Assembly: GCA_016700135.1 (NCBI GenBank)
Contig: CP065004.1
Location: forward strand, 360,001-392,000
DNA: 32,000 bases
Direction: 5' to 3'
Source of the DNA: Candidatus Saccharimonadota bacterium
Lineage (GTDB): Bacteria > Patescibacteriota > Microgenomatia > UBA1406 > GWC2-37-13
Shown: one piece after another, positions 8,225 through 26,365 of the stretch
How the letters are laid out: each line of letters opens with the position of its first letter
How positions within the stretch are numbered: position 1 is the stretch's first letter
Notes under the pieces: generated by a model
What the model saw: only the letters and a program-made list of their open reading frames with translations
Database searches by the model: none
Told to the model about the DNA's origin: nothing
Translations under genes and position numbers: made by a program

Positions 8225-8257
8225 GAAATAAGAGGCATATCTCTTAACCCTTTGTTT

Positions 8258-11200
8258 ATGAACATACGTAAGCTCATCATCATCGCAGCTTTTTTCTTCT
8301 TTTTTGTCCCGGCTAAACCGGTGAGTGCACAGATGGATTTTTACGGTTTTCCGCCTGTTGATAAGCCTCCGATTTTCTGCGGAAACCGCGAATCTCTGAC
8401 ATGTCCGAATGAAGTCGAGCCGATATATCAGGCCCTGCGTGATGCTGGGGAAAAAGACATATGTGCGACGAGCTACGCGGATTTCCTAACAGATCCGAAA
8501 ACAAAACATTACTGGATAGAAGACCCTGCCATTACGGCTCAGGGAAAAGCCGATGAACGTGCCAGACAGTTTTTGTACTGGGTCCTGAATACCAGCGCAA
8601 TTGACAATGCACGAGTTCTTACTGATATTTGGCAGTATACTGCGATGCTTGCTCTCTTCGGTGTAGTACTCGTAGCAGCTGTCTTCGGAATCGGCTATAT
8701 CATCAGTCAGCGTACAAACTATGACTTTAAAATCCGGATCTGGCCGACGATTATCAAAATAGGAACCATGTTGTTGTATGTGGCCTTCTCAGCTTCTATC
8801 GTGTTTTTCCTGATCCAGTTCTCGGAGGTCCTGATGAAATTTTCATACGAAAATCTGGGAGGTCAGAAGCTCTTTAATATATACTTTGCGGCAGACGACA
8901 ATCTTCTTGGCCGGACTGAAGCCAGCTACACAACATTCGTCGGCTGTCGTGACCTGAATATCCGTGTGCAGGAAGGAGTCGATGCTGAAATCTTTATGCT
9001 GAAACTGACCAATGTCAGTTACTACGTGATGGGAAGCATGCTCCTCTTGAGAAAAATTCTTCTCTGGTTTTTGCTTTTTGTATCGCCGTTTTTGGCGCTT
9101 CTTATGCCGTTTATTTTTATCAGGAACACGGGATGGATTTGGATCGGAGTATTTTTTCAGTGGCTTTTTTACGGACCTCTTCTCACTCTCTTTTTAGGTG
9201 CAATGGCAAAAATTTGGGAGTACGGTATTCCCTTTAGTTTTGACTTTTCACGTGTTGAAAAAATCGGCGGGTATATTTATCCGACAGGTATAAATATCGT
9301 ATACGGAGGACCTGCTCAAAGAATCTATGGAGCCGCTTCAGAAATACCTTCCCGTCCTATTAGCGCCATGAACAACGGCAGCTATGTCGACACCTTTGCC
9401 GAATATGTCATCACACTTCTCATGCTGTGGGCTGTCACATTCTTCCCCTGGTGGCTCCTTCGAATTTTCCGTGATTATTGCTGTGATGGGATATATGCTA
9501 TGAAGAATATTCTTCTGGCAATGTATGACAACATGCGCGGCGGACCTTCAAAAGGACCTACTCCATCCGGCCCCACAGGTCCTACTATGAAGTTGGATCG
9601 AAATATCCCGATCGAAACCGATATTAAAGTCTCTCTCGGATCACTTGCCCAGATGAAGAAATCCATGACAATCGATCTGGCGAAGAACCTCAATCTTTCC
9701 GCTTCCCGTATCACGGATATCGCAAGAGTCGAAACAAACAAGCAGATGCAAAGTGTCGTGAACCAAAATCTCACCTTCCTCGCAAATCCAGTAAAAGCGC
9801 AAAGACCTGCCGAAAGACAGCAGTATATGAATCTGCGGTCTGAGCTTTTTGCACGAGCTATTAAGAATGACTCAATGGCCCGCACGATCCTTGCCTCTAC
9901 TTCGACATCCGTGTCCGAGAAAACAAAGATCCGCGAATCGATCATCAAATCAATGCCTCAGACAATTACGATTTCTCAGGTTGTGACCGAAGAGACCCAC
10001 GTGCCGAAAGAAAAAGTCACGAATATAACAAATACCTATACCAAGAATATTACCAACAATACAAAAGCTATAGAATCGATTGCAAGATCCACGAACACTC
10101 CTCCGCAGATTGTAAACAACATTTTGAACTCATATAACAAGACAACGAACAGTCCAGTATCCAAAGTCGTCAACAATATTGCCAAAGAGAATAACACTTC
10201 AGTGAGTACCGTAAAACAGGTCCTCCAGCAGGCAGGTACAATCAGCTCACAGGCACATATGCTCCGACAGATTGCCACGGTGGAAAAACTGGACAGTAAA
10301 CAGATTACGAAGGTTCTGACCAGTATCAGATCCTCAGTCACCCGTGAAGAATCTACCGTCCAGGCAGTGGCCTCAACTACCCAACTTCCGCCGCCTCAGG
10401 TCGAACAGCTTGTCCAGCAGGCTTTTACTTCCGCAGTATCAAATGAACAGGTGATTGAGCAAATCGCACCGCCGACCGGTCAGCCGACAGTAATTGTCAA
10501 AGCGGTCGTCCAGTCTTTCGTCAAAAACATGAGTATGCCTGCAACGAGATTGGTAGAAAAAATTTCCGATGAGACAAAAGTCGAAAGAAGTACCGTTTCC
10601 CGTATCCTGAATCAGACATCAAAAGTAATGGAAAACAGCACTCTGGTGAAAGAAGTGGCCGAGAAAAATAATGTCACCACTCATGACGTCCAGACCGTCA
10701 TTGAAAAAGCCGTAGAAGTCTCAACAGTACAGACAAATCAGCCGGCCATTGCCGGTGTCGTCAAAGCAGCATCAAGTCAAACCACTGTAACTTCAAAAAC
10801 AATCCAAAATGTCATCAACGAAATTGCAAACAACCCAACAACAATCAAAAGCGTCGCAAATCAAACGAACATGCAGGAACATGAAGTTTCCAGTGTCATC
10901 AAAAGTTATGCCAATAACCTGAACCAAACGTCCGAGAATATCACTCACAAGATTGCACAGGAAACACAAATAAATGAAGGACAGGTCCAGAACATTCTGC
11001 AGAATGTTTCACAGGCAGTAACAAACTCGAAGACCGAACAAGCAACGATCGCAAAATCATCAAATGTCCAGAATGAAACCGTGCAGAAGATTTCACAGTC
11101 CATAGGCAGAACCGTTGAGGTTTCAAAAGACAAAACGGCACCGGCTGTCCAAAACATTGCAACCGCCTCATCCAGCGAAAGTACGACTATTCAGCAGATT

Positions 11201-12910
11201 CTTGAGACCTTCAGTCAGAACACAAACCTCACTACTCAGGTTGCTGAAGAAACCAATATGGAACAGCAGACTGTCTCACAGGTCCTCCAGTCATTCAGCA
11301 CCCATCTGAATGAATCCTCAAACACCATTATCAAATCAGTGGCATCAGACACAAAGGTGAGCGAAGAACATGTGAATTCAATTATTCAGTCAGCTGCAAC
11401 CGCTGTCTCAAATTCAAATACCTATCAGGAACAAATCACCCAGATTACGAATGCTCCTGTTGAAACAATCAAACAGATTGCTCAATCAGTCACGACTATC
11501 ACTCAAAAAACTGATACGACCCCGGTTGCAGATACCATCATTACGGATACCGCGACTAGTACAGCCTTGACAGAAGGAGATGTCACCAATGTCATCCAGA
11601 CATTTGCATCCAATGAAGAACTTATAAATCAGGTGGCACAGCATACTCAGATCGATGCAGCAACAGTCAAAAATGCATATGCCAGTTATACGCAGCACCT
11701 GACCGAGGCTCCGACAGAACTGGTGAAATCCGTGGCTACTGAAACTAACCTGACCCAGGAACAGGTCCAGAATATCATGCAGTCTTCTTCTGAAATATTG
11801 ACAAATGCTCCGCAAACTGTCACCCAGATCGCACAAACCACGAACATGTCCGAAAGCAATGTACAGAAGATTGCCAATGCAATGCCTCAATCAGTAACAA
11901 CTACTGCCGGACCGGAGACATCTATCATCAAACAGGTTTCACAGCAATCAAATATCTCAGAGACCGAATCACAGAAGATTATCCACAATCTTATGATGAC
12001 CGCCATCCAAAACGAAACCTTTGTCGAAAACCTGGCCAATCAGACACAGCTGAAAACACAGCAGGTGAAAAACATTATGTCAACCTATGCCAATAACATC
12101 AATCAGCCGTCAGAAAAAATTGTCCAGACAATCAACGAATCATCAGGAATACCAAAAGCAAGTGTCCAGACAGTTCTCATAACCCTTGCTGACTCCGTCA
12201 TCTCATCCGATCAGATCGTGGCACAGGTAGCCGAACAGGAAGGAATGGAACCTCAGCAGGTCAGCGATGTCATGCAGAAGCAGATGGAAGTAGCAAGCGA
12301 ACCGGAAAAACATATCGAAAAAACAATCTCGATTCCTCAGAGTATCTCACTCGAAGACTATGAGGAAGTGAAAGACATGTGGACTAAGCACTATGAGGAA
12401 GGTGAAGTTCCCGTCACGGATACGATCCAAACCCGAAAAGACTGGGTCGATCAGGAGATTGTATATATCACAAATACCCTCAATAAAATCCTCTCACCTG
12501 ATGAGCGTATGCAGCAGGAAGGACTGGACGAGCTCGGCTATCTCCTCCCGATTTTCCTGATCAACAACCTGAAGGGAGAGGAACTGATCGTGTATCTGAA
12601 AGCGAAGCTCGAAGCCGCCAAATTGACACAAAAGATACTCGAGCGCGAAGAAGCCGTAAAAGACCAGATGAAGAAAGATCAGGGCGAGGAAGAAGAAGTC
12701 CTGGTCGATGTGGCAAAGAAAGAAGAAGAAAATAAAGAAATGCACATGGATCTGGATGACGAAGAACAGGCTCCGAAAAGCATCGAAGACCGAGTCAAAG
12801 CCGTCCAAGAAAAGCTCGAATCTGTAGACACCCCCGAACCGACCGGTGATCAGACCGCCGATTCCATCAATGCCATTAAATCAAAACTACAAGAAAAGGC
12901 TGACAAGTGA
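8258..12910 (+). CDS. giant (~1550 aa) polytopic membrane protein, possibly TrbL/VirB6-like at the N-terminus, with a long HTH-like repeat tail and an acidic coiled-coil C-terminus
   Basis: Signal peptide MNIRKLIIIAAFFFFFVPAKPVSAQ (ATG 8258 preferred over the TTG at 8252). At least 5 TM helices in aa ~130-410, a Gly/Pro linker GGPSKGPTPSGPTGPT, ~25 degenerate repeats, then a KE-rich tail. The VirB6-like assignment is inferred from topology and the pilin neighbourhood only. Confidence 0.8.
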   Translation: MNIRKLIIIAAFFFFFVPAKPVSAQMDFYGFPPVDKPPIFCGNRESLTCPNEVEPIYQALRDAGEKDICATSYADFLTDPKTKHYWIEDPAITAQGKADERARQFLYWVLNTSAIDNARVLTDIWQYTAMLALFGVVLVAAVFGIGYIISQRTNYDFKIRIWPTIIKIGTMLLYVAFSASIVFFLIQFSEVLMKFSYENLGGQKLFNIYFAADDNLLGRTEASYTTFVGCRDLNIRVQEGVDAEIFMLKLTNVSYYVMGSMLLLRKILLWFLLFVSPFLALLMPFIFIRNTGWIWIGVFFQWLFYGPLLTLFLGAMAKIWEYGIPFSFDFSRVEKIGGYIYPTGINIVYGGPAQRIYGAASEIPSRPISAMNNGSYVDTFAEYVITLLMLWAVTFFPWWLLRIFRDYCCDGIYAMKNILLAMYDNMRGGPSKGPTPSGPTGPTMKLDRNIPIETDIKVSLGSLAQMKKSMTIDLAKNLNLSASRITDIARVETNKQMQSVVNQNLTFLANPVKAQRPAERQQYMNLRSELFARAIKNDSMARTILASTSTSVSEKTKIRESIIKSMPQTITISQVVTEETHVPKEKVTNITNTYTKNITNNTKAIESIARSTNTPPQIVNNILNSYNKTTNSPVSKVVNNIAKENNTSVSTVKQVLQQAGTISSQAHMLRQIATVEKLDSKQITKVLTSIRSSVTREESTVQAVASTTQLPPPQVEQLVQQAFTSAVSNEQVIEQIAPPTGQPTVIVKAVVQSFVKNMSMPATRLVEKISDETKVERSTVSRILNQTSKVMENSTLVKEVAEKNNVTTHDVQTVIEKAVEVSTVQTNQPAIAGVVKAASSQTTVTSKTIQNVINEIANNPTTIKSVANQTNMQEHEVSSVIKSYANNLNQTSENITHKIAQETQINEGQVQNILQNVSQAVTNSKTEQATIAKSSNVQNETVQKISQSIGRTVEVSKDKTAPAVQNIATASSSESTTIQQILETFSQNTNLTTQVAEETNMEQQTVSQVLQSFSTHLNESSNTIIKSVASDTKVSEEHVNSIIQSAATAVSNSNTYQEQITQITNAPVETIKQIAQSVTTITQKTDTTPVADTIITDTATSTALTEGDVTNVIQTFASNEELINQVAQHTQIDAATVKNAYASYTQHLTEAPTELVKSVATETNLTQEQVQNIMQSSSEILTNAPQTVTQIAQTTNMSESNVQKIANAMPQSVTTTAGPETSIIKQVSQQSNISETESQKIIHNLMMTAIQNETFVENLANQTQLKTQQVKNIMSTYANNINQPSEKIVQTINESSGIPKASVQTVLITLADSVISSDQIVAQVAEQEGMEPQQVSDVMQKQMEVASEPEKHIEKTISIPQSISLEDYEEVKDMWTKHYEEGEVPVTDTIQTRKDWVDQEIVYITNTLNKILSPDERMQQEGLDELGYLLPIFLINNLKGEELIVYLKAKLEAAKLTQKILEREEAVKDQMKKDQGEEEEVLVDVAKKEEENKEMHMDLDDEEQAPKSIEDRVKAVQEKLESVDTPEPTGDQTADSINAIKSKLQEKADK
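9677..12290 (+). repeat. protein-level tandem array of ~25 degenerate ~30-34-aa helix-turn-helix-like units in ~130-aa super-repeats
   Basis: Recurrent [IVL]xx[IV][AS]xx[TS]x[IVLM]xxxx[IV]xx[IV][ILM], for example ISDETKVERSTVSRILNQ, IAQETQINEGQVQNILQN, VAEETNMEQQTVSQVLQS. Every fourth unit ends in [ST][YF]xxx[LI]N, at nt ~10130, 10514, 10904, 11291, 11684 and 12083. Confidence 0.75.
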
Positions 12911-14941: not shown

Positions 14942-16184
14942 TGATTGCCGAAAGGATTATGACTATCGGATCTGATGATAGAGCCTGCACGATCGGCTCA
15001 ACTTTCGGAACCGACCAGCTTTTATATAAATTCAGAAAACTAATAAGTGAAAGTATACCCCATGCATACATAATGGAACGATATTTCACTGCCGGGACAA
15101 GAAGAAACGGCAGAATAAGTATAAGATACCGTTCATGCATTTTGGTTAAAAACAGGAATGACGCAAAAGCACAGAGTGAAAGTGCAATAAACAATGACAA
15201 CTTGCCCGAGCGGTTTTTCCAATATAAAACGGATAAGGCTAAGATAAACCCTCCGGCGATAATTGTCCCGACAGTCCCGTACGTAATACTGCCGATCAAT
15301 GAAGTCTCTGCCGGAACGAAAAACAATGGCGGATACAGGGCCCAGGCATTGTATGCGGCATTCGTTACCGCTCCGATACTCTGCGTATCAAGTATTCCTT
15401 CTTTGTAGAGAATAAACGGATACAGCGGGTCTCCCGGTTTCTGTGCCATCGGCTGAAATGCAAGCCAGAACAACAAAATACTTATCACAGCACCCTTCAA
15501 AGTTGTTTTCAAACCGTATCTTGAAAAAAATGAGATCATAAAAACCGGCAAAAAAACAAATACAGTAGGTTTAACAAGAACGGCAGCTGTCAGAATAACG
15601 AAACTCCAGTAAGGTTTCTTTACAAAAAAACTAAAATATACCGCCAGTGCCATAAGAAACAGCGGGATACTGTCAATCTGTCCGAAGAATGCGCTGTTGT
15701 AAAAGAAGGTCGGATGAAGAAGAATTAGGGACATGACCAGGACTTTCAGGTGTTTTCTTTTCGGATAAAGTTTTTCGGTGATCTGTGCTAAGATCCACGC
15801 AAGACCGAAATCGGAAAGGATCGCCGGGATTTTCATCAGACCTGCCTGAAAATGCAGACGCTCCATAAAAATCACAACGACAGAAGGAAATGCCGGAACG
15901 GTAAGATTGAGTTGCCAGAACGTCCCGAACAACCATTGATACAACGGATAAAACGGTGCAAACAATCCGATCGCAAGCGGCGGATAATTCGGGTATTCCG
16001 TACCATAAACGTCGATTGACCGCGTTTCATAAAACGCATAAAGCCCACGGTTCCATACGTCTTTTGCCCAGGAGATATGATTAAGCACATCAAAGCTGAA
16101 ATCGACAAACATAATACTGAGCCGGATGAAGATACCAAGAAGGATAATAACAAAAAAAGGAGACATCATTTTTTTCAGCGACAT
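14868..16184 (-). CDS. GT-C fold polyprenol-phosphate-sugar-dependent glycosyltransferase (DUF2029 / Gpi18-like mannosyltransferase type)
   Basis: 438 aa with ~11 TM helices. The first loop is FDVLNHISWAKDVW..YGTEYPNYPPLA, typical of this GT-C group. TATAAT lies 8 nt upstream of the ATG. Confidence 0.7.
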   Translation of the reverse strand: MSLKKMMSPFFVIILLGIFIRLSIMFVDFSFDVLNHISWAKDVWNRGLYAFYETRSIDVYGTEYPNYPPLAIGLFAPFYPLYQWLFGTFWQLNLTVPAFPSVVVIFMERLHFQAGLMKIPAILSDFGLAWILAQITEKLYPKRKHLKVLVMSLILLHPTFFYNSAFFGQIDSIPLFLMALAVYFSFFVKKPYWSFVILTAAVLVKPTVFVFLPVFMISFFSRYGLKTTLKGAVISILLFWLAFQPMAQKPGDPLYPFILYKEGILDTQSIGAVTNAAYNAWALYPPLFFVPAETSLIGSITYGTVGTIIAGGFILALSVLYWKNRSGKLSLFIALSLCAFASFLFLTKMHERYLILILPFLLVPAVKYRSIMYAWGILSLISFLNLYKSWSVPKVEPIVQALSSDPIVIILSAINVLLFLYVFRFFVSHNQKASSAAD

Positions 16185-19863: not shown

Positions 19864-21336
19864 ATGCAAAAGTGGGTTCTTCCGGCAACCGTCTTTATTT
19901 CAGGAATGCTTGTCATGATTCTGGAACTTATCGGGACAAGAATGATTGCACCTTATTTCGGTTCATCGTTGCATGTCTGGACTGCCATGATCGGTACCAT
20001 TCTCGGTTGTTTAAGTATCGGATATTTTATCGGGGGACGCATCGCAGACAAAAAGGCTTCATATGAACAACTCGGCTTCGTACTTCTGCTGAATGCGTTT
20101 GCCTGTCTTTTTCTTGTTTTTACAGCAAGATATATTCTGATTTTTCTCGCAAATACTATCGCATTTACATCCCTAGGGGCTCTTATTGCCACATTTCTCC
20201 TTTTCAGTATTCCCAGTATACTGTTCGGCGTTGTCTCTCCTTATGCCGCTAAATTGCAATTAAACTCACTTAAAAGTTCGGGAAGAACCGTTGGGAATTT
20301 GTATGCTCTCGGCACGATCGGAAGCATTACCGGGACGTTTCTGGCAGGTTACTATCTGCTTAGTGTTATGGGAAGTTTCCAGCTTATTTTTTTGATCAGT
20401 GTGGCATTGATGATAAATGCAGCAGTACTTCTGAAAAAAAACTATAGAGCTTTGATTGGGATGAGTATTATCTCCACCTTTTATTTCGGTTTTCTGTCAC
20501 CGACCAAGTATTACCAGATACCGTATGATACCCACGTTATGGCAGTCGAGCATACACCGTATAGTGATTACTTTATTCTGCAGTATGAAGATAATGGAGA
20601 TATTTTTCGTATGCTTATGACTGATTTTGCCGGGGTACAGTCTAAACATAAAATGGGACACAGGGACGAACTTGCAGCTGCATACTCCAGATTTTTCACA
20701 CTGCCTGCGTGCTACAACCTGAATAGTCGCGTTCTTCTCATAGGAGGAGGCGCCTTTACGTACCCCAATTATTACTCAAGTCAATTTCCGGACGGAGAAA
20801 TGGATGCTGTGGAAATCGATCCTGCGCTAACGAGTATTGCCCGGGAATACTTCGAACTTGCAGCCGATACTGAACAGGTGCGGATTATTAACGAAGACGG
20901 GCGGGTCTATCTGAATAGGAATACCAAAAAATATGATACCATCTTGGTCGATGCATATGCCAACTCCATACCTCCTTTTCAACTCACGACAAAAGAAGCA
21001 ATTGAAAAAATGTACGATTCGCTGGAAAAAAACGGTCTTCTCATCATGAATGTTCTGTCGGTCATAGATGATAAGAAACCCACACTTGTTGATGTAGAGA
21101 TGAAAACAGTACAAGAAGTGTTTGGGAATATAACCGTCTATCAGGTGATGAAAGATAAAGATTTTGAGGAGACACAAGGTTTTATTCTCGTTGCAGAAAA
21201 GGGTGATGTGAGATTGCAAAATACCTGCTTAGTGACAAATCAAGGTTTGCTGAACAATATCCTGCACTACCGACCGAAAGGACAGACTCCAATCTTTACC
21301 GATTCCTATGCGCCTGTCGAAAGCGTGATTTTTTAA
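19864..21336 (+). CDS. membrane-fused spermidine synthase-like aminopropyltransferase
   Basis: About 7 N-terminal TM helices, then a SpeE-like Rossmann domain (VLLIGGGAFTYP..AVEIDPALTSIAREYF..NEDGRVYL..YDTILVDAY). The ORF track starts at GTG 19858. I prefer ATG 19864 because of the -10 spacing. Confidence 0.8.
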   Translation: MQKWVLPATVFISGMLVMILELIGTRMIAPYFGSSLHVWTAMIGTILGCLSIGYFIGGRIADKKASYEQLGFVLLLNAFACLFLVFTARYILIFLANTIAFTSLGALIATFLLFSIPSILFGVVSPYAAKLQLNSLKSSGRTVGNLYALGTIGSITGTFLAGYYLLSVMGSFQLIFLISVALMINAAVLLKKNYRALIGMSIISTFYFGFLSPTKYYQIPYDTHVMAVEHTPYSDYFILQYEDNGDIFRMLMTDFAGVQSKHKMGHRDELAAAYSRFFTLPACYNLNSRVLLIGGGAFTYPNYYSSQFPDGEMDAVEIDPALTSIAREYFELAADTEQVRIINEDGRVYLNRNTKKYDTILVDAYANSIPPFQLTTKEAIEKMYDSLEKNGLLIMNVLSVIDDKKPTLVDVEMKTVQEVFGNITVYQVMKDKDFEETQGFILVAEKGDVRLQNTCLVTNQGLLNNILHYRPKGQTPIFTDSYAPVESVIF

Positions 21337-21372
21337 CCCACGAAAAAGGGCCCGCCGGTATGGGCAGGCCCC
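21336..21372 (-). terminator. rho-independent terminator, copy R1 of a duplicated terminator module
   Basis: Minus sense reads GGGCCTGCC-catacc-GGCGGGCCC followed by TTTTTCGTGGGT. The one imperfect pair is G-U in minus sense but C-A in plus sense, so the hairpin is better formed for the minus-strand gene. Confidence 0.8.
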
Positions 21373-21398
21373 GTTTCTTGCTTCAACATGCGACTGGG

Positions 21399-22244
21399 TC
21401 AATCCGTCGTGACGGACGGCAGATAGAGAAAAGTGTCCTCACTCTGGGCCGATTCTGCTGTGATGGTGACGCCGCCGTCTACAAGCTCCGTTTGCGTCGG
21501 AGCGTCGGTTACGAAACTCTCAATGCGAAGGTGGGAGGCTCCGACCTCCATACCTCGGAATCTGAGGAGCAAAAGCTCCCCATCAAGCAGGAACTTATCC
21601 GACCCGCCGCCGTAGAATACGAGTCGACCCTCCTTGACGAGGATGTCGTTGAGCGCAATGTCGGAACTACGAGGCAGAATCGATCCGCCTTCAAGATCCA
21701 GGAATTCGAGAGACTCCGAATCAAAGTGGACTTCGCCTGCGAAGAGCTTGGCTGAGACAGTCGACGAGACGGTGAGCGGGATCGTGATCTCATACGTCGT
21801 AGTGACGGTTGCAGTGGGCAGCGACACAGTGACGCCCGGAAGACCTTGCGGCCGCTCCGTCGTCAAGGTGAGCCGAAGTTCCTTCATATTGCCCCACCAT
21901 TCTCCGATGATGGGGTCGCTGAAAAAGAATTTGCCGCCTACGAAAAACTCGACGCCGGGGTCGAACCGTCCTGATTGGTACACAGTCATGAGAGGGATGA
22001 CGCCGTACTGCAGCGTCTCCCCGCAGCCCACGACGTATCCTGAATCGTCGACTGCGATGACTTCCAAGCCTTCCGGGACCGGTACTCCGTTGTCGTAGGC
22101 ACGCCCGTAGACGTACCCCCGAATCGAACCACCCATGATTGCCGGGCAATCCGATTCCTCCTCTCCCTGTGCGTTTACCACCCCGAAAAGACCGAGGGCA
22201 GCGATAGCGATAAGAAGAGCTCCGAACCACTTTCTTGTTTTCAC
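21399..22244 (-). CDS. secreted protein with a C-terminal cohesin-like beta-sandwich domain
   Basis: GTG start with signal peptide MKTRKWFGALLIAIAALGLFGVVNAQ. The C-terminal half (ITIPLTVSSTVSAKLFAGEVHFDSESLEFLDLEGG...LLLLRFRGMEVGASHLRIES) fits the cohesin pattern. High GC. Confidence 0.65.
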   Translation of the reverse strand: MKTRKWFGALLIAIAALGLFGVVNAQGEEESDCPAIMGGSIRGYVYGRAYDNGVPVPEGLEVIAVDDSGYVVGCGETLQYGVIPLMTVYQSGRFDPGVEFFVGGKFFFSDPIIGEWWGNMKELRLTLTTERPQGLPGVTVSLPTATVTTTYEITIPLTVSSTVSAKLFAGEVHFDSESLEFLDLEGGSILPRSSDIALNDILVKEGRLVFYGGGSDKFLLDGELLLLRFRGMEVGASHLRIESFVTDAPTQTELVDGGVTITAESAQSEDTFLYLPSVTTD

Positions 22245-22249
22245 GATAG

Positions 22250-22256
22250 CCTCCTT
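22250..22256 (-). promoter_or_regulatory. Shine-Dalgarno AAGGAGG
   Basis: CCTCCTT on the plus strand, 5 nt from the GTG start (22242-22244). Confidence 0.7.
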
Positions 22257-22310
22257 AGCTAGTGAACGTTATGACCCGCCGATTGCGGAACTCTGAAGAT
22301 AACACTATTT

Positions 22311-22376
22311 GTCATCCTGAACTTGATTCAGGATCCATGGATTTGTACTGGATTCCCGATCATAGTCGGGAATGAC
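22311..22376. repeat. REP/MITE-like nested palindrome (two inverted hairpin units)
   Basis: The plus strand has GTCATCCTGAAC-ttga-TTCAGGATCCA. The minus strand has GTCATTCCCGAC-tatg-ATCGGGAATCCA. The two units are arranged head to head around ttgtac. Confidence 0.6.
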
Positions 22377-22637
22377 ATGAGTCTCAACTTCTCCTCAAAA
22401 TACCGCAATCAGCTTTAATCGCATGTTATTAAAGTGCTCCAACTTTGCATATATAGGCATAGCTGGACAAGCAAGTCTACAGGATGGGATTCGTTCTTTT
22501 TGCCACTACACGATACAATGCTTATATGTATGGTAATAACAAGATGAAGAATACATCGTAAGTAGGAATTGTGAGTTCAATAATACACCCGATAAGACCG
22601 GAAATCAAGACTATAGGACTTTATGGCATACGATTTC

Positions 22638-22673
22638 ACCCACGAAAAAGGGCCCGCTGTTTAAGGCGAGCCC
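22638..22673 (-). terminator. rho-independent terminator, copy R2 of the duplicated module
   Basis: Minus sense reads GGGCTCGC-cttaaaca-GCGGGCCC followed by TTTTTCGTGGGT. The first 20 nt on the plus strand (ACCCACGAAAAAGGGCCCGC) are identical to R1. Confidence 0.8.
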
Positions 22674-22795
22674 TGTTTTCTTGCTGTTACAACTTGTGGA
22701 GTTCCGTGTTGAACGGAACTAGTGATTGAGTGCTTTTATGCGGTCACTCAGCCCGCTCCCATCTTCTTTGATGAGATTATTCAGTTTTCAGACAA

Positions 22796-24862
22796 CTACT
22801 GCAGCGGATCGGGGCCTTCCCCTAAGGCTCCCTCGACATAAGCGGAGACCAGCGGAAGGTACAACTCAAGCTGCAGGATCGGCATCTCGTCCTGGGGATC
22901 CAACGACATTGTCGGACCGTTGACTGCCGAAAGCTCATCGACCGTGATTGACTCCAACGTGAGCACTTGCGTGCCTTCCGTCGGAATAATCGTAAGATCA
23001 ACCGAACTGACAGGATCAGTCATGGAAGCCAAGGGTACGAAGCCGGCGTTCGGTTGAACAGTGTCGAAACCTGCCGCCATCACAGACTGAACACTCTGAT
23101 CAAACTGGAGTGCCAGGCCGCTAAACGGCTGTTCCGAGCTGATGCGGACCACCAGAGGCTGTGTGCTGATCACGGTCGTCGTGATGTTGGGCGTCTCTGC
23201 CACTTCAGCCGCAGCAACGGAATCACCGGGCAACCAGTTGCCGGTGACGTCACACATCAACCAAAGCTTGGTGATATGCCCACTGCTTGTCGGACCGTTC
23301 ACTTCAACAGTGATTGCTTCGCCGCGCCAATCGCCGCAAGCAGCATCCGAATCATTGTAACGCGCAGCGAACCGCAGGATGCGGTTGGCATCGTAGCTCG
23401 TGATGGGTTGCTTATCGTCGGCGTCCGCGCTCCACTCCATATACGGAATACCGAAGGTGGTGCGGAGAGCCGCCCGCTGATGAGTAAGTGCGGCATCCAT
23501 AGAGCTTACGGCATGCCGATCGTACTCGGACTTCTGCTTGGAGAAAGTCGCGGTCCACGTTCCCATAGTCGGGAGTGCGGCAGTGTAGCCGCCGTCCCAA
23601 CCGGTCGTGGCCGTGACAACGTCGATCCCGTTAGACAGAGTGACCGTCACATCCTTCATGGGCTTATTGCCGTTCCAGAAGTAGACAGCGCCCGTCCAGA
23701 GGCTGGCGTTTACGGTCACCTGACCGTATTCACCCGCCACGGGCATCGAACCGCCGTTGATCAAGACCTCCGGCACCTGTACGCCCGAAAGCATCACAGG
23801 AACGGTCCCTGCCCGCAGCGCCCGAAACTTCAGGCGAAGCATGAGGCCGGAATTGGTCGTGATCGGCTGTTGTCCCTGTCCGGTGATGATAATCGAGCCG
23901 GGAGTACCCGTGTTCAGGATGTACTGGAAGTTCTGCGTCGCCGTTCCTGCCTGATCAATACCCACAAACGAAAGATGCGTCGGCGAATACTGCAGCCGCG
24001 CATCGATGCTGTAGATCTGACCGGTGTTGTTGCGGAATTCCAGCGGAACCATGATCTCATTCCCCACGACGGTTGTCGTATCGGGGATGGTCAAAGTCAC
24101 AGGCAAGGTCCAGTCCCAACTGACCAGAAGACACAAAGGTGCCTGGTCGGTGGGCTGTAGCTTGATCTCAACGCTGCCTTGATTCTGATTCAGGCGCCAG
24201 CCTTCATAGGCATTGTTAGCCAGTTGGCGCCAATCAGTTGCCCCCACCAGTCGATAGTAGATCTCCCGCCCGACAAAGATGTTCTGGATAGTCGGATAGG
24301 TAGAGCCGTCATTCCAACGGTTGATTACGACCATCGGGCCGTTCAGGCACGTTGTTGCGTCATGCATGCTGTTGGTCTGACCACCATGAGACATACTCAC
24401 GTGGACCGCAACAGGATCAGTTTCCTGTCCGTTGCGAACGAAGTAGGTGCTTTTGGGTGTCATGTTAGCAGAAAGCTGACGCATGTCGATCTGGCCATTC
24501 TTGAGGCGGGCCTGGATGACAAAGTCACTGAACACCGTAGAGCTTGTGTTGTTGACATACACCTGGAGGTTACCAGGGTAACCCCAGTGGTGTCGGACAC
24601 TACTGCCCATCACGGGTTCAGCCGCCGCCCGAACTTCTTCGCCGTTCTCCAAAACGCTCAAGTCGCCTTCGAGAAGACCCTTCAAAACCACCTCATCGGT
24701 GATCTGAACGGGCTGCGAATCGACTTCTTGAGCATAGGCCGAGACGTGGGTCGCGAACATAGCCAAAAGTGCCATAAGCACCGCGACTGCCGCGAGTACG
24801 GTCCAATTCACACTCCGCTGCGGCATCGCCGCTACTTTGACCTGATACTTCTTGGTATACAT
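22796..24862 (-). CDS. secreted multidomain protein with a cohesin-like domain and a dockerin-like module
   Basis: Start moved to ATG 24862 (MYTKKYQVKVAAMPQRSVNWTVLAAVAVLMALLAMFATHVSAYAQE), which has a GAGAGGA SD 4 nt upstream. Cohesin-like segment at ~23705-24112 (VVGNEIMVPLEFRNNTGQIYSIDARLQYSPTHLSFVG...LRLKFRALRAGTVPV). Dockerin-like segment at ~23355-23525 (AVSSMDAALTHQRAA ... DADDKQPITSYDANRILRFAA). Confidence 0.65.
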   Translation of the reverse strand: MYTKKYQVKVAAMPQRSVNWTVLAAVAVLMALLAMFATHVSAYAQEVDSQPVQITDEVVLKGLLEGDLSVLENGEEVRAAAEPVMGSSVRHHWGYPGNLQVYVNNTSSTVFSDFVIQARLKNGQIDMRQLSANMTPKSTYFVRNGQETDPVAVHVSMSHGGQTNSMHDATTCLNGPMVVINRWNDGSTYPTIQNIFVGREIYYRLVGATDWRQLANNAYEGWRLNQNQGSVEIKLQPTDQAPLCLLVSWDWTLPVTLTIPDTTTVVGNEIMVPLEFRNNTGQIYSIDARLQYSPTHLSFVGIDQAGTATQNFQYILNTGTPGSIIITGQGQQPITTNSGLMLRLKFRALRAGTVPVMLSGVQVPEVLINGGSMPVAGEYGQVTVNASLWTGAVYFWNGNKPMKDVTVTLSNGIDVVTATTGWDGGYTAALPTMGTWTATFSKQKSEYDRHAVSSMDAALTHQRAALRTTFGIPYMEWSADADDKQPITSYDANRILRFAARYNDSDAACGDWRGEAITVEVNGPTSSGHITKLWLMCDVTGNWLPGDSVAAAEVAETPNITTTVISTQPLVVRISSEQPFSGLALQFDQSVQSVMAAGFDTVQPNAGFVPLASMTDPVSSVDLTIIPTEGTQVLTLESITVDELSAVNGPTMSLDPQDEMPILQLELYLPLVSAYVEGALGEGPDPLQ

Positions 24863-24866
24863 GATA

Positions 24867-24874
24867 TCCTCTCT
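24867..24874 (-). promoter_or_regulatory. Shine-Dalgarno AGAGAGGA
   Basis: TCCTCTCT on the plus strand, 4 nt from ATG 24862. Confidence 0.6.
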
Positions 24875-25492
24875 TGTACTTGATTGTGTTAATTGAAGGC
24901 CGGATGATAGCAATGAAACACATTCCGGGACGTACGGGGATCAGGGCATTTCTGCCCTTTATCCTCTATTCTTTTTTTCCTTTCTTATGATTTTCATCTT
25001 CCTTTCGTCCTGACACAGTGAGTGTCAAAGGTAGATGATTGCGAATTCTAAAGCTAAGGGATTAGCCTCAAAACTTCGCAATCATAACCTCAAAAGACTA
25101 AGAAAAATGATATTGTCATAAAAATTGACATATTTCGTATAAGCTCAATATGAGCTTATTTCATTTTCCACAAGTTGTTAATGTGCCCCAACTTCGTTGA
25201 ATTTGAGCTCAACTTCGTTGGACAATAGCAAGTCTGCGACTTTGTTATCTCGTTTAGACACTATTCCCGCTAAAAGCTGTTTCAGGGGTAAGGATCTAAG
25301 TGAAGATAATCAGTACGTAGAATTCGAATTGTGTTGAGGTGAAAAGTAACAGCTTGTGTTACATTACACACTCAATGTGTATATTATACCACAAAATGCC
25401 ATATTTATCTACTACTATAGGATATATAAAAGCTGATATACTCCGTGTGTATTTTTACTCAAAAACCTTTGAAACTATAAGTATAATAACGT

Positions 25493-26365
25493 ATGGGAAT
25501 GGGAGAGAACCTTAATAAGCAAGTCAGAGAACTTTCACAGGATGAACTGAGAAGAAACCGGGCTCAATTTATCGAATGGTTCGATACGCGATCAAGACAA
25601 ACGATACAGATTCAAAACCACCACTACACTCTTCCGTACGGGACTGATTCCCAACAAATTGATGACAGGAGTGTCGCTCTTGATGAATACCTCATTGATC
25701 CTCAAAGCGTCACCGATCACAACTGGGGAAGGACGATTATGTCTGAACTTGCATTTGAGGATATGTTGAGGCGGGAAATGGGAGAAATTCTTGCTGCCCA
25801 GGGACTACATATCGTACCGGCTACTACTTCACTTGATGGTTCACGCCGTGATCATCCTCCCGAGAATGACCAACATCGACTTCTTCTTCCGGATGAGGCG
25901 CTTGAATCTTTTGCTAATGGCCATCCTCCCTACAATCAAAAGGGGGCAGATCTTGTCCTTCTTGATGATAAACAGCACGCCATAGTCGGATTTGACGCCA
26001 CAATCGGAGGCAGGTCAACCCTTCAGGAGAAAAGAAAACGCGTCCCGCTTCAACCGTATCCGGCTATGCCTGTTATTACATTAGGACTTCAAAAGCTTCC
26101 TATCGCCGGCCACTGGGGTTTTATTCCCTTTCTTGACCGTACGGCACGGAATTCGGTGCTATTGCACGGACAACTGAAAATTGAGCAATATCGCTGGGAC
26201 GAGGATACCGTTCGTTATCTAAGACATACCCTGACAACCGGGATACAAGCTGCCCGCCGCGGCTTAAAGCAAGATCTGGAGCTCGGTTTTCCTTATCCAT
26301 ACCTTGATGAAGTGAGACACAAACTGAATGTGACTGAAGAGTTATTCCAAAACGCTCTGGGGTGA
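25493..26365 (+). CDS. hypothetical protein (290 aa, soluble, no recognised domain)
   Basis: Clean ORF with TATAAT (25482-25487) 5 nt upstream of the ATG. I cannot place it in a family. Confidence 0.6.
   Translation: MGMGENLNKQVRELSQDELRRNRAQFIEWFDTRSRQTIQIQNHHYTLPYGTDSQQIDDRSVALDEYLIDPQSVTDHNWGRTIMSELAFEDMLRREMGEILAAQGLHIVPATTSLDGSRRDHPPENDQHRLLLPDEALESFANGHPPYNQKGADLVLLDDKQHAIVGFDATIGGRSTLQEKRKRVPLQPYPAMPVITLGLQKLPIAGHWGFIPFLDRTARNSVLLHGQLKIEQYRWDEDTVRYLRHTLTTGIQAARRGLKQDLELGFPYPYLDEVRHKLNVTEELFQNALG

Follow-up and report, generated by a model that had tools for sequence, protein, structure and literature searches.

A GC-rich pair of genes for secreted cohesin-module proteins in a Roizmanbacteria genome: probably an old, clade-conserved locus of two expression cassettes

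Introduction

Cohesin- and dockerin-like modules reportedly occur outside cellulosomes across bacteria and archaea, as Peer et al. are said to have found in 2009. Two genes that recall this group, here called gene A and gene B, lie next to a speE-like gene in a 32,000-nucleotide stretch of a Patescibacteriota genome (contig CP065004.1, positions 360,001 to 392,000; hereafter the window, with positions counted from its first letter). Their products match IPM65_02145 and IPM65_02150, encoded on a 1,448,136-bp contig from a Ca. Roizmanbacteria bacterium, with 100% identity, and their coding sequences (CDSs) are much richer in GC than the genes around them. An earlier note on this DNA took them for a foreign island acquired by this genome. 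On balance we favor another reading, which we hold to be probable though well short of certain: they form an old, clade-conserved, content-variable Roizmanbacteria locus, made up of two autonomous expression cassettes for secreted cohesin-module surface proteins.

Gene B resembles described non-cellulosomal proteins in that it has a Cohesin domain within a unit shared with hundreds of environmental proteins, a signal peptide, and no carbohydrate-active enzyme (CAZyme) as partner. The present locus differs from them in several ways. Pfam misses the dockerin of gene B and places the cohesin of gene A below threshold, both proteins have orphan domains as well as a [YF]LPx[VIL] tag at the C-terminus, and the genes sit in a stereotyped expression cassette in a genome of the candidate phyla radiation (CPR).

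The locus shares with horizontally acquired genomic islands its atypical GC content, codon usage and translation signals, and its variable content beside a conserved gene. Unlike such islands, it has no integrase, tRNA, att site or transposase, it is present in all relatives examined, its anomaly is confined to the CDSs while the leaders look native, no donor was found for it, and it shows no net amelioration in the window lineage. Integron arrays come to mind as well, since the genes are tandem single-gene units with related imperfect hairpins and one repeat-bounded unit is absent in a relative. However, each unit here has its own promoter and leader, the hairpins have T-runs and score as terminators, and no integrase is found nearby or elsewhere in the window, so an integron-cassette array was rejected.

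Abundant surface-protein mRNAs, such as those of S-layer genes and ompA, carry long stabilizing 5′ leaders. Here too, a predicted long, structured 5′ leader and a strong terminator surround the gene of a secreted, putatively structural protein; these leaders form a new family, unmatched in Rfam at E ≤ 1. In icaR of Staphylococcus aureus, the 3′ untranslated region (UTR) pairs with the Shine-Dalgarno (SD) region and represses translation (PMC3868564). The cassettes likewise have, just upstream of the terminator, a 3′-UTR segment complementary to their own 5′ UTR, although in this case the predicted pairing is bipartite (6 + 9–12 bp) and lies at least 150 nt upstream of the SD. Finally, in one CPR Gracilibacteria genome, a hypervariable surface gene that varies in a tandem PTD repeat fragments the assembly (PMC6851277). 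Our locus is also a CPR extracellular-protein locus where metagenome contigs break and alleles differ; here, however, the exchange involves entire domains, and what stands out most is the GC bias. We found no published description of such cassettes in the literature.

Materials and methods

The host reference consists of the 23 other genes of the window, and the island of gene A plus gene B. Composition was scanned in 500-bp windows. The relatives compared are contigs or genomes labelled L001–L004 and L007–L010. Among these, L004 is Roizmanbacteria UBA1450, L003 is CAZDDM010000061.1, and L007–L010 are a single population recovered in four independent assemblies; a further contig, L005, is CAYMVU010000086.1. 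Independent assemblies came from ENA, Logan, JGI and NCBI. Nine leaders and nine cassette proteins form the set for comparisons of the leader helix, box pairing and C-terminal tag. In the pairing controls for helix and boxes, partners were slid out of register, and z-scores for leader folds are relative to shuffled sequences. Synonymous changes were polarized by parsimony as GC-to-AT (S>W) or AT-to-GC (W>S); the root was uncertain at first, and the test was redone with a rooted outgroup (L007) and host-gene controls. Relatives of gene B were sought with HMMER among 1.84 billion representatives. The Pfam gathering threshold for Cohesin (PF00963) is 24.1 bits. AlphaFold models of gene A and gene B were built from 5-sequence alignments.

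Results and discussion

Two genes that stand out in composition and translation signals

Gene A and gene B, oriented convergently with the speE-like gene, are outliers in composition among the genes of the window, and their translation signals look foreign. The features concerned are as follows, with GC3 standing for GC content at third codon positions.

21399–22244, minus strand: gene A (IPM65_02145), 281 amino acids, GC3 0.66
22250–22256, minus strand: Shine-Dalgarno site AAGGAGG of gene A, 5 nt from the start codon, kept in L001, L003 and L004
22796–24862, minus strand: gene B (IPM65_02150), 688 amino acids, GC3 0.68
24867–24873, minus strand: Shine-Dalgarno site GAGAGGA of gene B, 5 nt from the start codon

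Overall GC content is 57.0% in gene A and 56.6% in gene B, compared to 40–50% in the host genes (n = 23), whose GC3 averages 0.433 (SD 0.041, maximum 0.52); the corresponding z values are 5.5 and 5.9. GC content is 0.48–0.59 over positions 21501–25000 and 0.35–0.50 in the rest of the window. In island codons, A at the third position (A3) has a frequency of 0.11 versus 0.25 in the host, with gains in both C- and G-ending codons. GC3 is raised along the whole length of both CDSs, save for the signal peptide of gene A (residues 1–27, GC3 0.48), and is as high in the lineage-specific N-terminal domain of gene B as in the remainder of that gene. At both start codons GC content falls sharply, to 41–45%, and the intergenic leaders are AT-rich (42% GC over 22245–22795, 36% over 24863–25492).

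An SD core within 19 nt of the start is found in none of the 23 host genes (Fisher P = 0.003 versus the two island genes). The nearest SD-like core among them is an AGGA at −20, ahead of the gene at 8252. A TAnnnT box peaks at −12 in 8 of the host genes and falls within −15 to −10 in 15/23, against a background of about 1 per position elsewhere. With this box at −12 and no SD core, the host genes of the window look leaderless.

Much of what the earlier note described is borne out by these data. They agree with its GC-rich CDSs in an AT-richer host, its AT-rich leaders, its confinement of canonical SD sites to the two genes and its mostly leaderless host. The two plus-strand open reading frames (ORFs) of 397 and 234 aa that it called spurious are both antisense to gene B, and the speE-like ORF ends at 21336, where the note had the segment begin. 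The right border it chose, 25260, is arbitrary: it lies inside the conserved leader of gene B, which reaches the predicted promoter at 25383–25411.

A probably old locus with variable content

Orthologues lie downstream of speE in five other lineages (L001, L002, L003, L004 and L007), of which L004 has a speE only 54% identical to that of the window. The gene order in L001 and L002 is Fe-hydrogenase-like gene, 290-aa gene, cohesin gene, (gene A), speE-like gene, ABC transporter. Synteny extends to L003, with speE, gene A and gene B, to L004 and to L007–L010. Identity to relatives is 72–94% for flank orthologues, ∼77% for gene A and ∼77% for residues 254–672 of gene B. Nucleotide homology runs unbroken from speE through gene A and its leader into the 3′ end of gene B, and synonymous divergence (dS) between lineages reaches 1 or more, or saturation, in island and flank genes alike. 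The GC bias is likewise present in the relatives, with GC3 values of 0.65 for gene A of L001, 0.68 for gene B of L002, and 0.56 and 0.64 for gene A and a gene B fragment of L007; in L004, GC content is raised across the equivalent region. A remnant of the last ∼30 codons of gene B (DEMPILQIELYMPLV...PDPLQ*) lies upstream of the gene A homologue of L004, and hence the order B-A-speE predates a deep split.

The sole presence/absence difference is the lack of gene A in L002. This indel is bounded exactly by two terminator repeats, the direct repeats that flank gene A, and represents a deletion, because the outgroup has the gene. No empty site was seen in L001, L002, L003, L004 or L007, with few relatives sampled. 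In agreement with the earlier note, neither an integrase nor a transposase was detected among the ORFs and Pfam matches within the segment or next to it, and no tRNA is located there; the only tRNA lies at 1442–1512, ∼20 kb away. Viral-contig scans for both families gave no match. The donor search returned no donor lineage: all matches with E < 1e-100 are orthologues at this locus, and the next matches are only ∼20–24% identical. Insertion after speE is thus contradicted by same-site orthologues in five lineages, by saturated synonymous sites and by a locus that is occupied in all relatives examined. Nor would one expect, after block transfer from a donor of high GC content, leaders and terminators that are AT-rich, paralogous between cassettes and conserved across genomes.

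Within this conserved frame, the content varies. Between lineages, gene B retains both its ends (at the N-terminus, KYQxKxAAMP and a transmembrane segment) but has its interior exchanged. One stretch at the speE/gene A junction stands out in the comparison with L003.

21004–21431 (L003 1132–1559): tract of 428 bp identical to L003, exact match

The tract takes in the 3′ end of speE, the terminator and the final 33 nt of gene A, and the DNA flanking it is 70–89% identical. It may reflect either recent inter-lineage recombination or a strain-mosaic assembly of L003. Together with the mosaic alleles of gene B, it suggests recombination at the locus. An apparent excess of island dS over flank dS between the window and L003 was withdrawn, because the L003 speE is a mosaic that includes this tract. 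Identity between the two speE genes falls into three tiers (77%, 87–90% and 100%).

Several side observations concern how the locus is assembled and binned. The contigs of L007–L010 all end inside gene B (position 1), and other homologues (P0003, P0005 and P0010) are on short contigs of 1.5–2.7 kb; contig breaks in gene B suggest strain-level heterogeneity at the locus. L003 and L005 overlap by 55 bp, yet are placed in two different ‘uncultured Gammaproteobacteria’ metagenome-assembled genomes, probably through mis-binning linked to the GC-rich genes. In L004, most of gene B has been replaced by a 180-aa ORF (14972–15514, about 62% GC) with no family match. The same hotspot of L004 also contains, at 11553–12680, a GC-richer gene for a secreted protein of 375 aa with a Pro/Thr-rich linker, which has the same leader, 3′ box, terminator and C-terminal tag.

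Each gene in a predicted cassette of its own

By prediction, each gene is an autonomous cassette, consisting of promoter, leader, SD, GC-rich CDS, 3′ box and terminator. The elements of cassette A are listed first, in order of transcription, followed by those of cassette B; helices are from minimum free energy (MFE) folds, and MITE stands for miniature inverted-repeat transposable element.

22580–22608, minus strand: predicted promoter of gene A, −35 TTGATT, 17-nt spacer, TG-extended −10 TATTAT
22470–22480, minus strand: leader box i of cassette A, GUAGACUUGCU, complementary to the 3′ box
22419–22427, minus strand: leader box ii of cassette A, AACAUGCGA, complementary to the 3′ box
22388–22410 and 22281–22303, minus strand: pairing arms of the predicted leader helix of cassette A (MFE folds)
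21377–21393, minus strand: 3′ box of gene A, mRNA UCGCAUGUUGAAGCAAG, between stop codon and terminator (RNAduplex)
21347–21372, minus strand: predicted intrinsic terminator of gene A, 10-bp stem then TTTTTCGTGGG (terminator scan)
25383–25411, minus strand: predicted promoter of gene B, TAGATA, 17-nt spacer, TG-extended TATAAT, 10/12 match
25227–25235, minus strand: leader box i of cassette B, AGACUUGCU
25166–25178, minus strand: leader box ii of cassette B, ACAACUUGUGGAA
25037–25083, minus strand: predicted leader helix of cassette B (GAUUGCGAAGUUUUGAGGCUAA / UUAGCUUUAGAAUUCGCAAUC), without MITE insert
22675–22795, minus strand: structured 3′ UTR of gene B, conserved, holding its 3′ box
22680–22700, minus strand: 3′ box of gene B, mRNA UCCACAAGUUGUAACAGCAAG, complementary to boxes i and ii of cassette B
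22649–22674, minus strand: predicted intrinsic terminator of gene B, second copy of the repeated terminator module

The promoters are predicted to be of the sigma70 type, one per cassette, giving leaders of about 330 nt for gene A and about 510 nt for gene B. The gene A promoter is kept in all A-type leaders, including that of the 375-aa gene of L004, and the gene B promoter is invariant in 4 genomes. Leaders of different cassettes are paralogous, and are also conserved across genomes. They share the boxes GUAGACUUGCU, UUAAYAACWUGYGR, and GAUUGCGRNRUUUUGAGG ... CUUYAGRNYUYCGCAAUC, the last two of which are the two helix strands. An 18-nt leader motif, GATTGCGNNNTTTTGAGG, occurs solely upstream of cassette genes in the window and L001–L004 (2 copies in the window, 2 in L001, 1 in L002, 1 in L003 and 2 in L004).

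A helix of about 20–23 bp appears in the MFE fold of 9/9 leaders. In this helix 86.5% of cells are paired, compared to 35–53% in the slid controls, and 10 pairs have changed on both sides. It has many G-U pairs, and several positions are mainly G-U, which argues that the structure is specific to the mRNA strand. Fold z-scores are −7.1 (gene B) and −4.9 (gene A) in the sense orientation, and −5.3 and −1.9 in antisense.

The predicted pairing between 5′ and 3′ boxes (6 + 9–12 bp) has 95.7% of cells paired, versus 30–44% in slid controls. Two compensating box types are seen, AACAUGCGA/UCGCAUGUU for gene A in the window clade and ACAACUUGUGG/CCACAAGUUGU for gene B and L004. The distance from box i to box ii varies from 5 to 48 nt among leaders, and the box pairing includes a few G-U pairs. 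Variable spacing and G-U pairs favor an interaction of the boxes at the RNA level over a recombinase site.

The terminators belong to one family, and their stems differ between genomes by compensatory changes. The terminator module of gene A is a 45-nt direct repeat with 22634–22678, and its 19-mer CCCACGAAAAAGGGCCCGC occurs twice versus 0 expected. The gene A terminator is probably bidirectional, facing the convergent speE-like gene.

Searches for related RNAs gave little. Rfam 15 returned only two chance-level eukaryotic matches over 21000–25800 at E ≤ 1, and no credible family. The sole contig retrieved in a metagenome scan with a 21-base leader motif is unrelated, with a GC content of about 67% (62–71% by window), and was set aside as a chance match.

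Three further elements of the leaders deserve mention. A palindrome, TACACAnnnnnTGTGTA (25365–25381), overlaps the predicted start site of gene B, and its arms are invariant in four genomes. A 5′-terminal protective hairpin was considered and rejected because the palindrome straddles that site; it is more likely a candidate operator. A MITE-like nested palindrome (TGTCATTCCCGAC...GTCGGGAATCC / GGATCC...GGATGACA) occupies 22310–22377, with a partial copy at 1011–1023 and further copies in L001 (7330 and 9852) and L002 (4908); it sits in the helix loop of 8/9 leaders, the exception being the gene B leader of the window. Lastly, the gene B leader has a conserved purine-rich block, GGACGAAAGGAAGAUGA, at 24960–25005 on the minus strand. 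A short ORF starts at this block, but its length and frame differ between genomes, and hence it is probably not a conserved leader peptide.

Secreted proteins with cohesin modules

Gene A encodes a Sec-type signal peptide, an orphan N-terminal domain, a diverged cohesin (residues ∼133–264) and a C-terminal YLPSV tag. Gene B begins with a signal or transmembrane region (residues 1–45) and a lineage-specific orphan domain (46–253; 24104–24727). These are followed by a cohesin (255–357; 23792–24100), a CarboxypepD_reg-like segment (399–444; 23531–23668), a degenerate dockerin-like segment (∼451–546; 23225–23512) and a C-terminal domain that ends in a YLPLV tag.

The Cohesin match of gene B scores 41.5 bits (residues 255–357), above the gathering threshold, and its CarboxypepD_reg match in Pfam is weak. 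Gene A scores 13.4 bits against Cohesin, below that threshold, and its C-terminal half aligns to the cohesin of remote homologues with a probability of 96.4% in hhalign (E = 1.4e-9). Residues 242–555 of gene B match a cohesin–CarboxypepD_reg–dockerin unit with a probability of 99.9%, and its ADADDKQPITSYDANRILRF falls on the dockerin loop-helix consensus ADVSGNGxxTSFDAALIAR. Dockerin_1 (PF00404) gives no Pfam match in gene B even at E < 5. Given this, together with the homology to the three-domain unit, we infer a degenerate dockerin. The view of these proteins as secreted cohesin/dockerin cargo therefore stands as regards the cohesins, through Pfam for gene B and profile–profile comparison for gene A, while the dockerin is supported by homology but not by Pfam.

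The full HMMER search found 447 relatives of gene B, only five of them with E < 1e-30. Among the 23 remote relatives that cover profile positions 220–520, 21 combine Cohesin, CarboxypepD_reg and Dockerin_1. Among 5.8 billion proteins, the gene A family has no more than five clusters, none of them outside this clade, and a profile search added nothing to these. The closest matches from outside the clade are ∼20–24% identical. Where remote relatives have a named source, it is Acidobacteria/Chloracidobacterium, a Pacebacteria bacterium or a Chloroflexaceae bacterium, and all are too distant to point to a donor. NCBIfam has no match for either protein, searches of PDB sequences gave nothing at E ≤ 1 for gene A or gene B, and exact look-ups of four window proteins returned no record.

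All nine cassette proteins carry the [YF]LPx[VIL] tag, 2–17 residues from the C-terminus, and it is missing from every other ORF of 90 aa or more in the window and L001–L004. No transmembrane segment follows the motif in the tails inspected, unlike in sortase or exosortase signals, where a hydrophobic helix and a basic tail come after the motif. Ten remote homologues (P0024, P0039, P0059, P0064, P0066, P0075, P0108, P0112, P0137 and P0145) end in ...[FY]LP[LAV][VIL]x[RKH]; the sole named one with an FLPLV-type tag is from a Chloroflexaceae bacterium, and other remote homologues have tails like those of the type IX secretion system. The C-terminal LP tag may be undescribed and shared with Chloroflexota. 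There are no CAZyme domains in the cassette proteins or their neighbors and a single cohesin per protein, an arrangement that does not correspond to a cellulosome, which would combine a scaffoldin of several cohesins with dockerin-bearing CAZymes.

Why the coding sequences are GC-rich

On the branch leading to the window, the polarized synonymous changes number 31 S>W and 33 W>S. Decay under the AT bias of the host (equilibrium GC3 0.43) predicts a ratio of 2.66:1, which the observed 31:33 rejects (P = 5e-5). With the rooted outgroup L007, the counts for gene A on the same branch are 12:9 and 12:14. Balanced changes imply a GC bias that is maintained rather than decaying, and this seems to be the case in the window lineage. 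In the same analysis, host genes show an AT-to-GC excess, the known parsimony artefact from common to rare state. In GC-rich genes this artefact would inflate the GC-to-AT counts. Per site, W>S changes are ∼3.4 times as frequent in the island as in speE, and S>W rates are similar. Upkeep of GC-rich, A3-poor codons might come from selection on codon usage or mRNA stability, if the mRNAs are highly expressed, or, alternatively, from GC-biased repair in a recombination-prone locus.

Several points weigh against this account, and against the reading of the locus as a whole. An AT-ward excess is seen in L003 (46:28), L002 (23:13) and L007 (18:4, with L004 as outgroup), and GC3 is lower in L007 and L004 (0.55–0.60), so that the bias seems stationary in the window lineage but is apparently eroding in certain others; part of the data is thus consistent with an ancient import that is slowly ameliorating. 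Polarization, moreover, was by parsimony at a dS of ∼1 and with few sites. As for the proteins, the dockerin-like segment of gene B has a Lys at one calcium-loop position and a poorly conserved first repeat, and the AlphaFold models are unusable (predicted local distance difference test scores of 36 and 35), giving no help with the folds or with a cohesin–dockerin contact. The covariation between A-type and B-type boxes represents one or two independent events only. One caveat for the cassettes in general is that promoters, transcript ends, helix and 5′–3′ pairing are all predictions.

The best of the alternatives is an ancient transfer of SD-led cohesin/dockerin genes from a higher-GC bacterium, followed by vertical descent and passive, slow amelioration. 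We regard it as possible, though not probable. A GC3 that lies 5.5–5.9 SD above the host, SD sites confined to these genes and the AT-ward synonymous excess or lower GC3 of L003, L002, L007 and L004 are what it would lead one to expect. The cohesin–CarboxypepD_reg–dockerin unit is common in remote homologues, including those of Acidobacteria/Chloracidobacterium, the FLPLV-type tag recurs among them (the named case being the Chloroflexaceae bacterium), and the L004 hotspot holds another ORF of 62% GC. However, no donor has emerged among matches that reach ∼20–24% identity outside the clade, and gene A is known from five clusters, all within it. Nor does a transfer account for leaders and terminators that are AT-rich and paralogous between cassettes, with an abrupt switch in GC at the start codon, or for a lineage-specific N-terminal domain of gene B with the same GC3 as the rest. 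The window branch shows no net decay, even though parsimony inflates S>W counts in GC-rich genes. A deep ancestral acquisition is possible, and the ultimate origin of the clade-conserved locus may be an ancient transfer; nothing demands a recent one.

GC-biased gene conversion (gBGC) has been proposed for bacteria (PMC4450053). Applied here, it would mean that exchange of a variable surface locus among co-occurring lineages drives AT-to-GC fixation. Signs of such exchange include the mosaic alleles of gene B with their conserved ends, the loss of gene A by recombination between terminator repeats, the identical stretch of 428 bp shared with L003 where speE meets gene A and the four independent assemblies that break inside gene B, and the raised W>S rate, at similar S>W, has the right direction. 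Even so, we judge gBGC very unlikely to be the explanation. The conserved leaders of the same recombining locus stay AT-rich, a GC3 rise of 25 points is large beside the effects reported for gBGC in bacteria, and the 428-bp identity could be an artefact of strain-mosaic assembly in L003.

A recent foreign island inserted after the speE stop codon, or a chimera of assembly or binning, is hardly credible, despite the sharp change in composition that begins at that codon and the binning of the related contig L003 as ‘Gammaproteobacteria’: the agreement of independent ENA, Logan, JGI and NCBI assemblies excludes an assembly chimera, and a recent island is contradicted by same-site orthologues, island divergence as large as that of the flanks (dS at least 1), continuous nucleotide homology from speE through gene A to the 3′ end of gene B, and the lack of mobility genes, tRNA, donor or viral copies.

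Proposed role and implications

If the locus is an old, clade-conserved pair of cassettes, its products could be abundant components of a surface or adhesion scaffold under diversifying pressure. They might assemble via cohesin–dockerin-like contacts, for example between the dockerin of gene B and the cohesin of gene A or gene B. The long helix, 5′–3′ pairing and strong terminator would then stabilize or regulate SD-led mRNAs among otherwise leaderless ones. A bolder proposal, which we put forward tentatively and consider unlikely as it stands, is that these genes define a dedicated class of surface proteins with its own rules of expression: SD-led, long-leader ‘closed-loop’ mRNAs, CDSs actively kept GC-rich and A3-poor, and exchangeable interiors, with products that form a surface lattice or host-attachment scaffold. 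In that case, the conserved gene ends would allow interior domains to be exchanged between lineages.

The two are specific candidates for proteins that an uncultured CPR lineage might use at its surface or for attachment. More generally, the locus shows how an ‘island’ with a sharp change in composition can be old, limited to CDSs and apparently maintained, which calls for caution in inferring transfer from GC content. The same caution applies to binning, as related contigs had been assigned to Gammaproteobacteria and assemblies break off in the locus. The cassettes also offer a candidate new structured leader and 5′–3′ UTR pairing on the only SD-led genes of a leaderless-looking set, making the question of two modes of translation initiation in one genome testable.

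Other features of the window

Elsewhere in the window, at 8252–12910, lies an ORF of 1552 aa with a TTG start. It is conserved in L002 and L004, and its Pfam matches are scattered, weak helix-turn-helix ones only.

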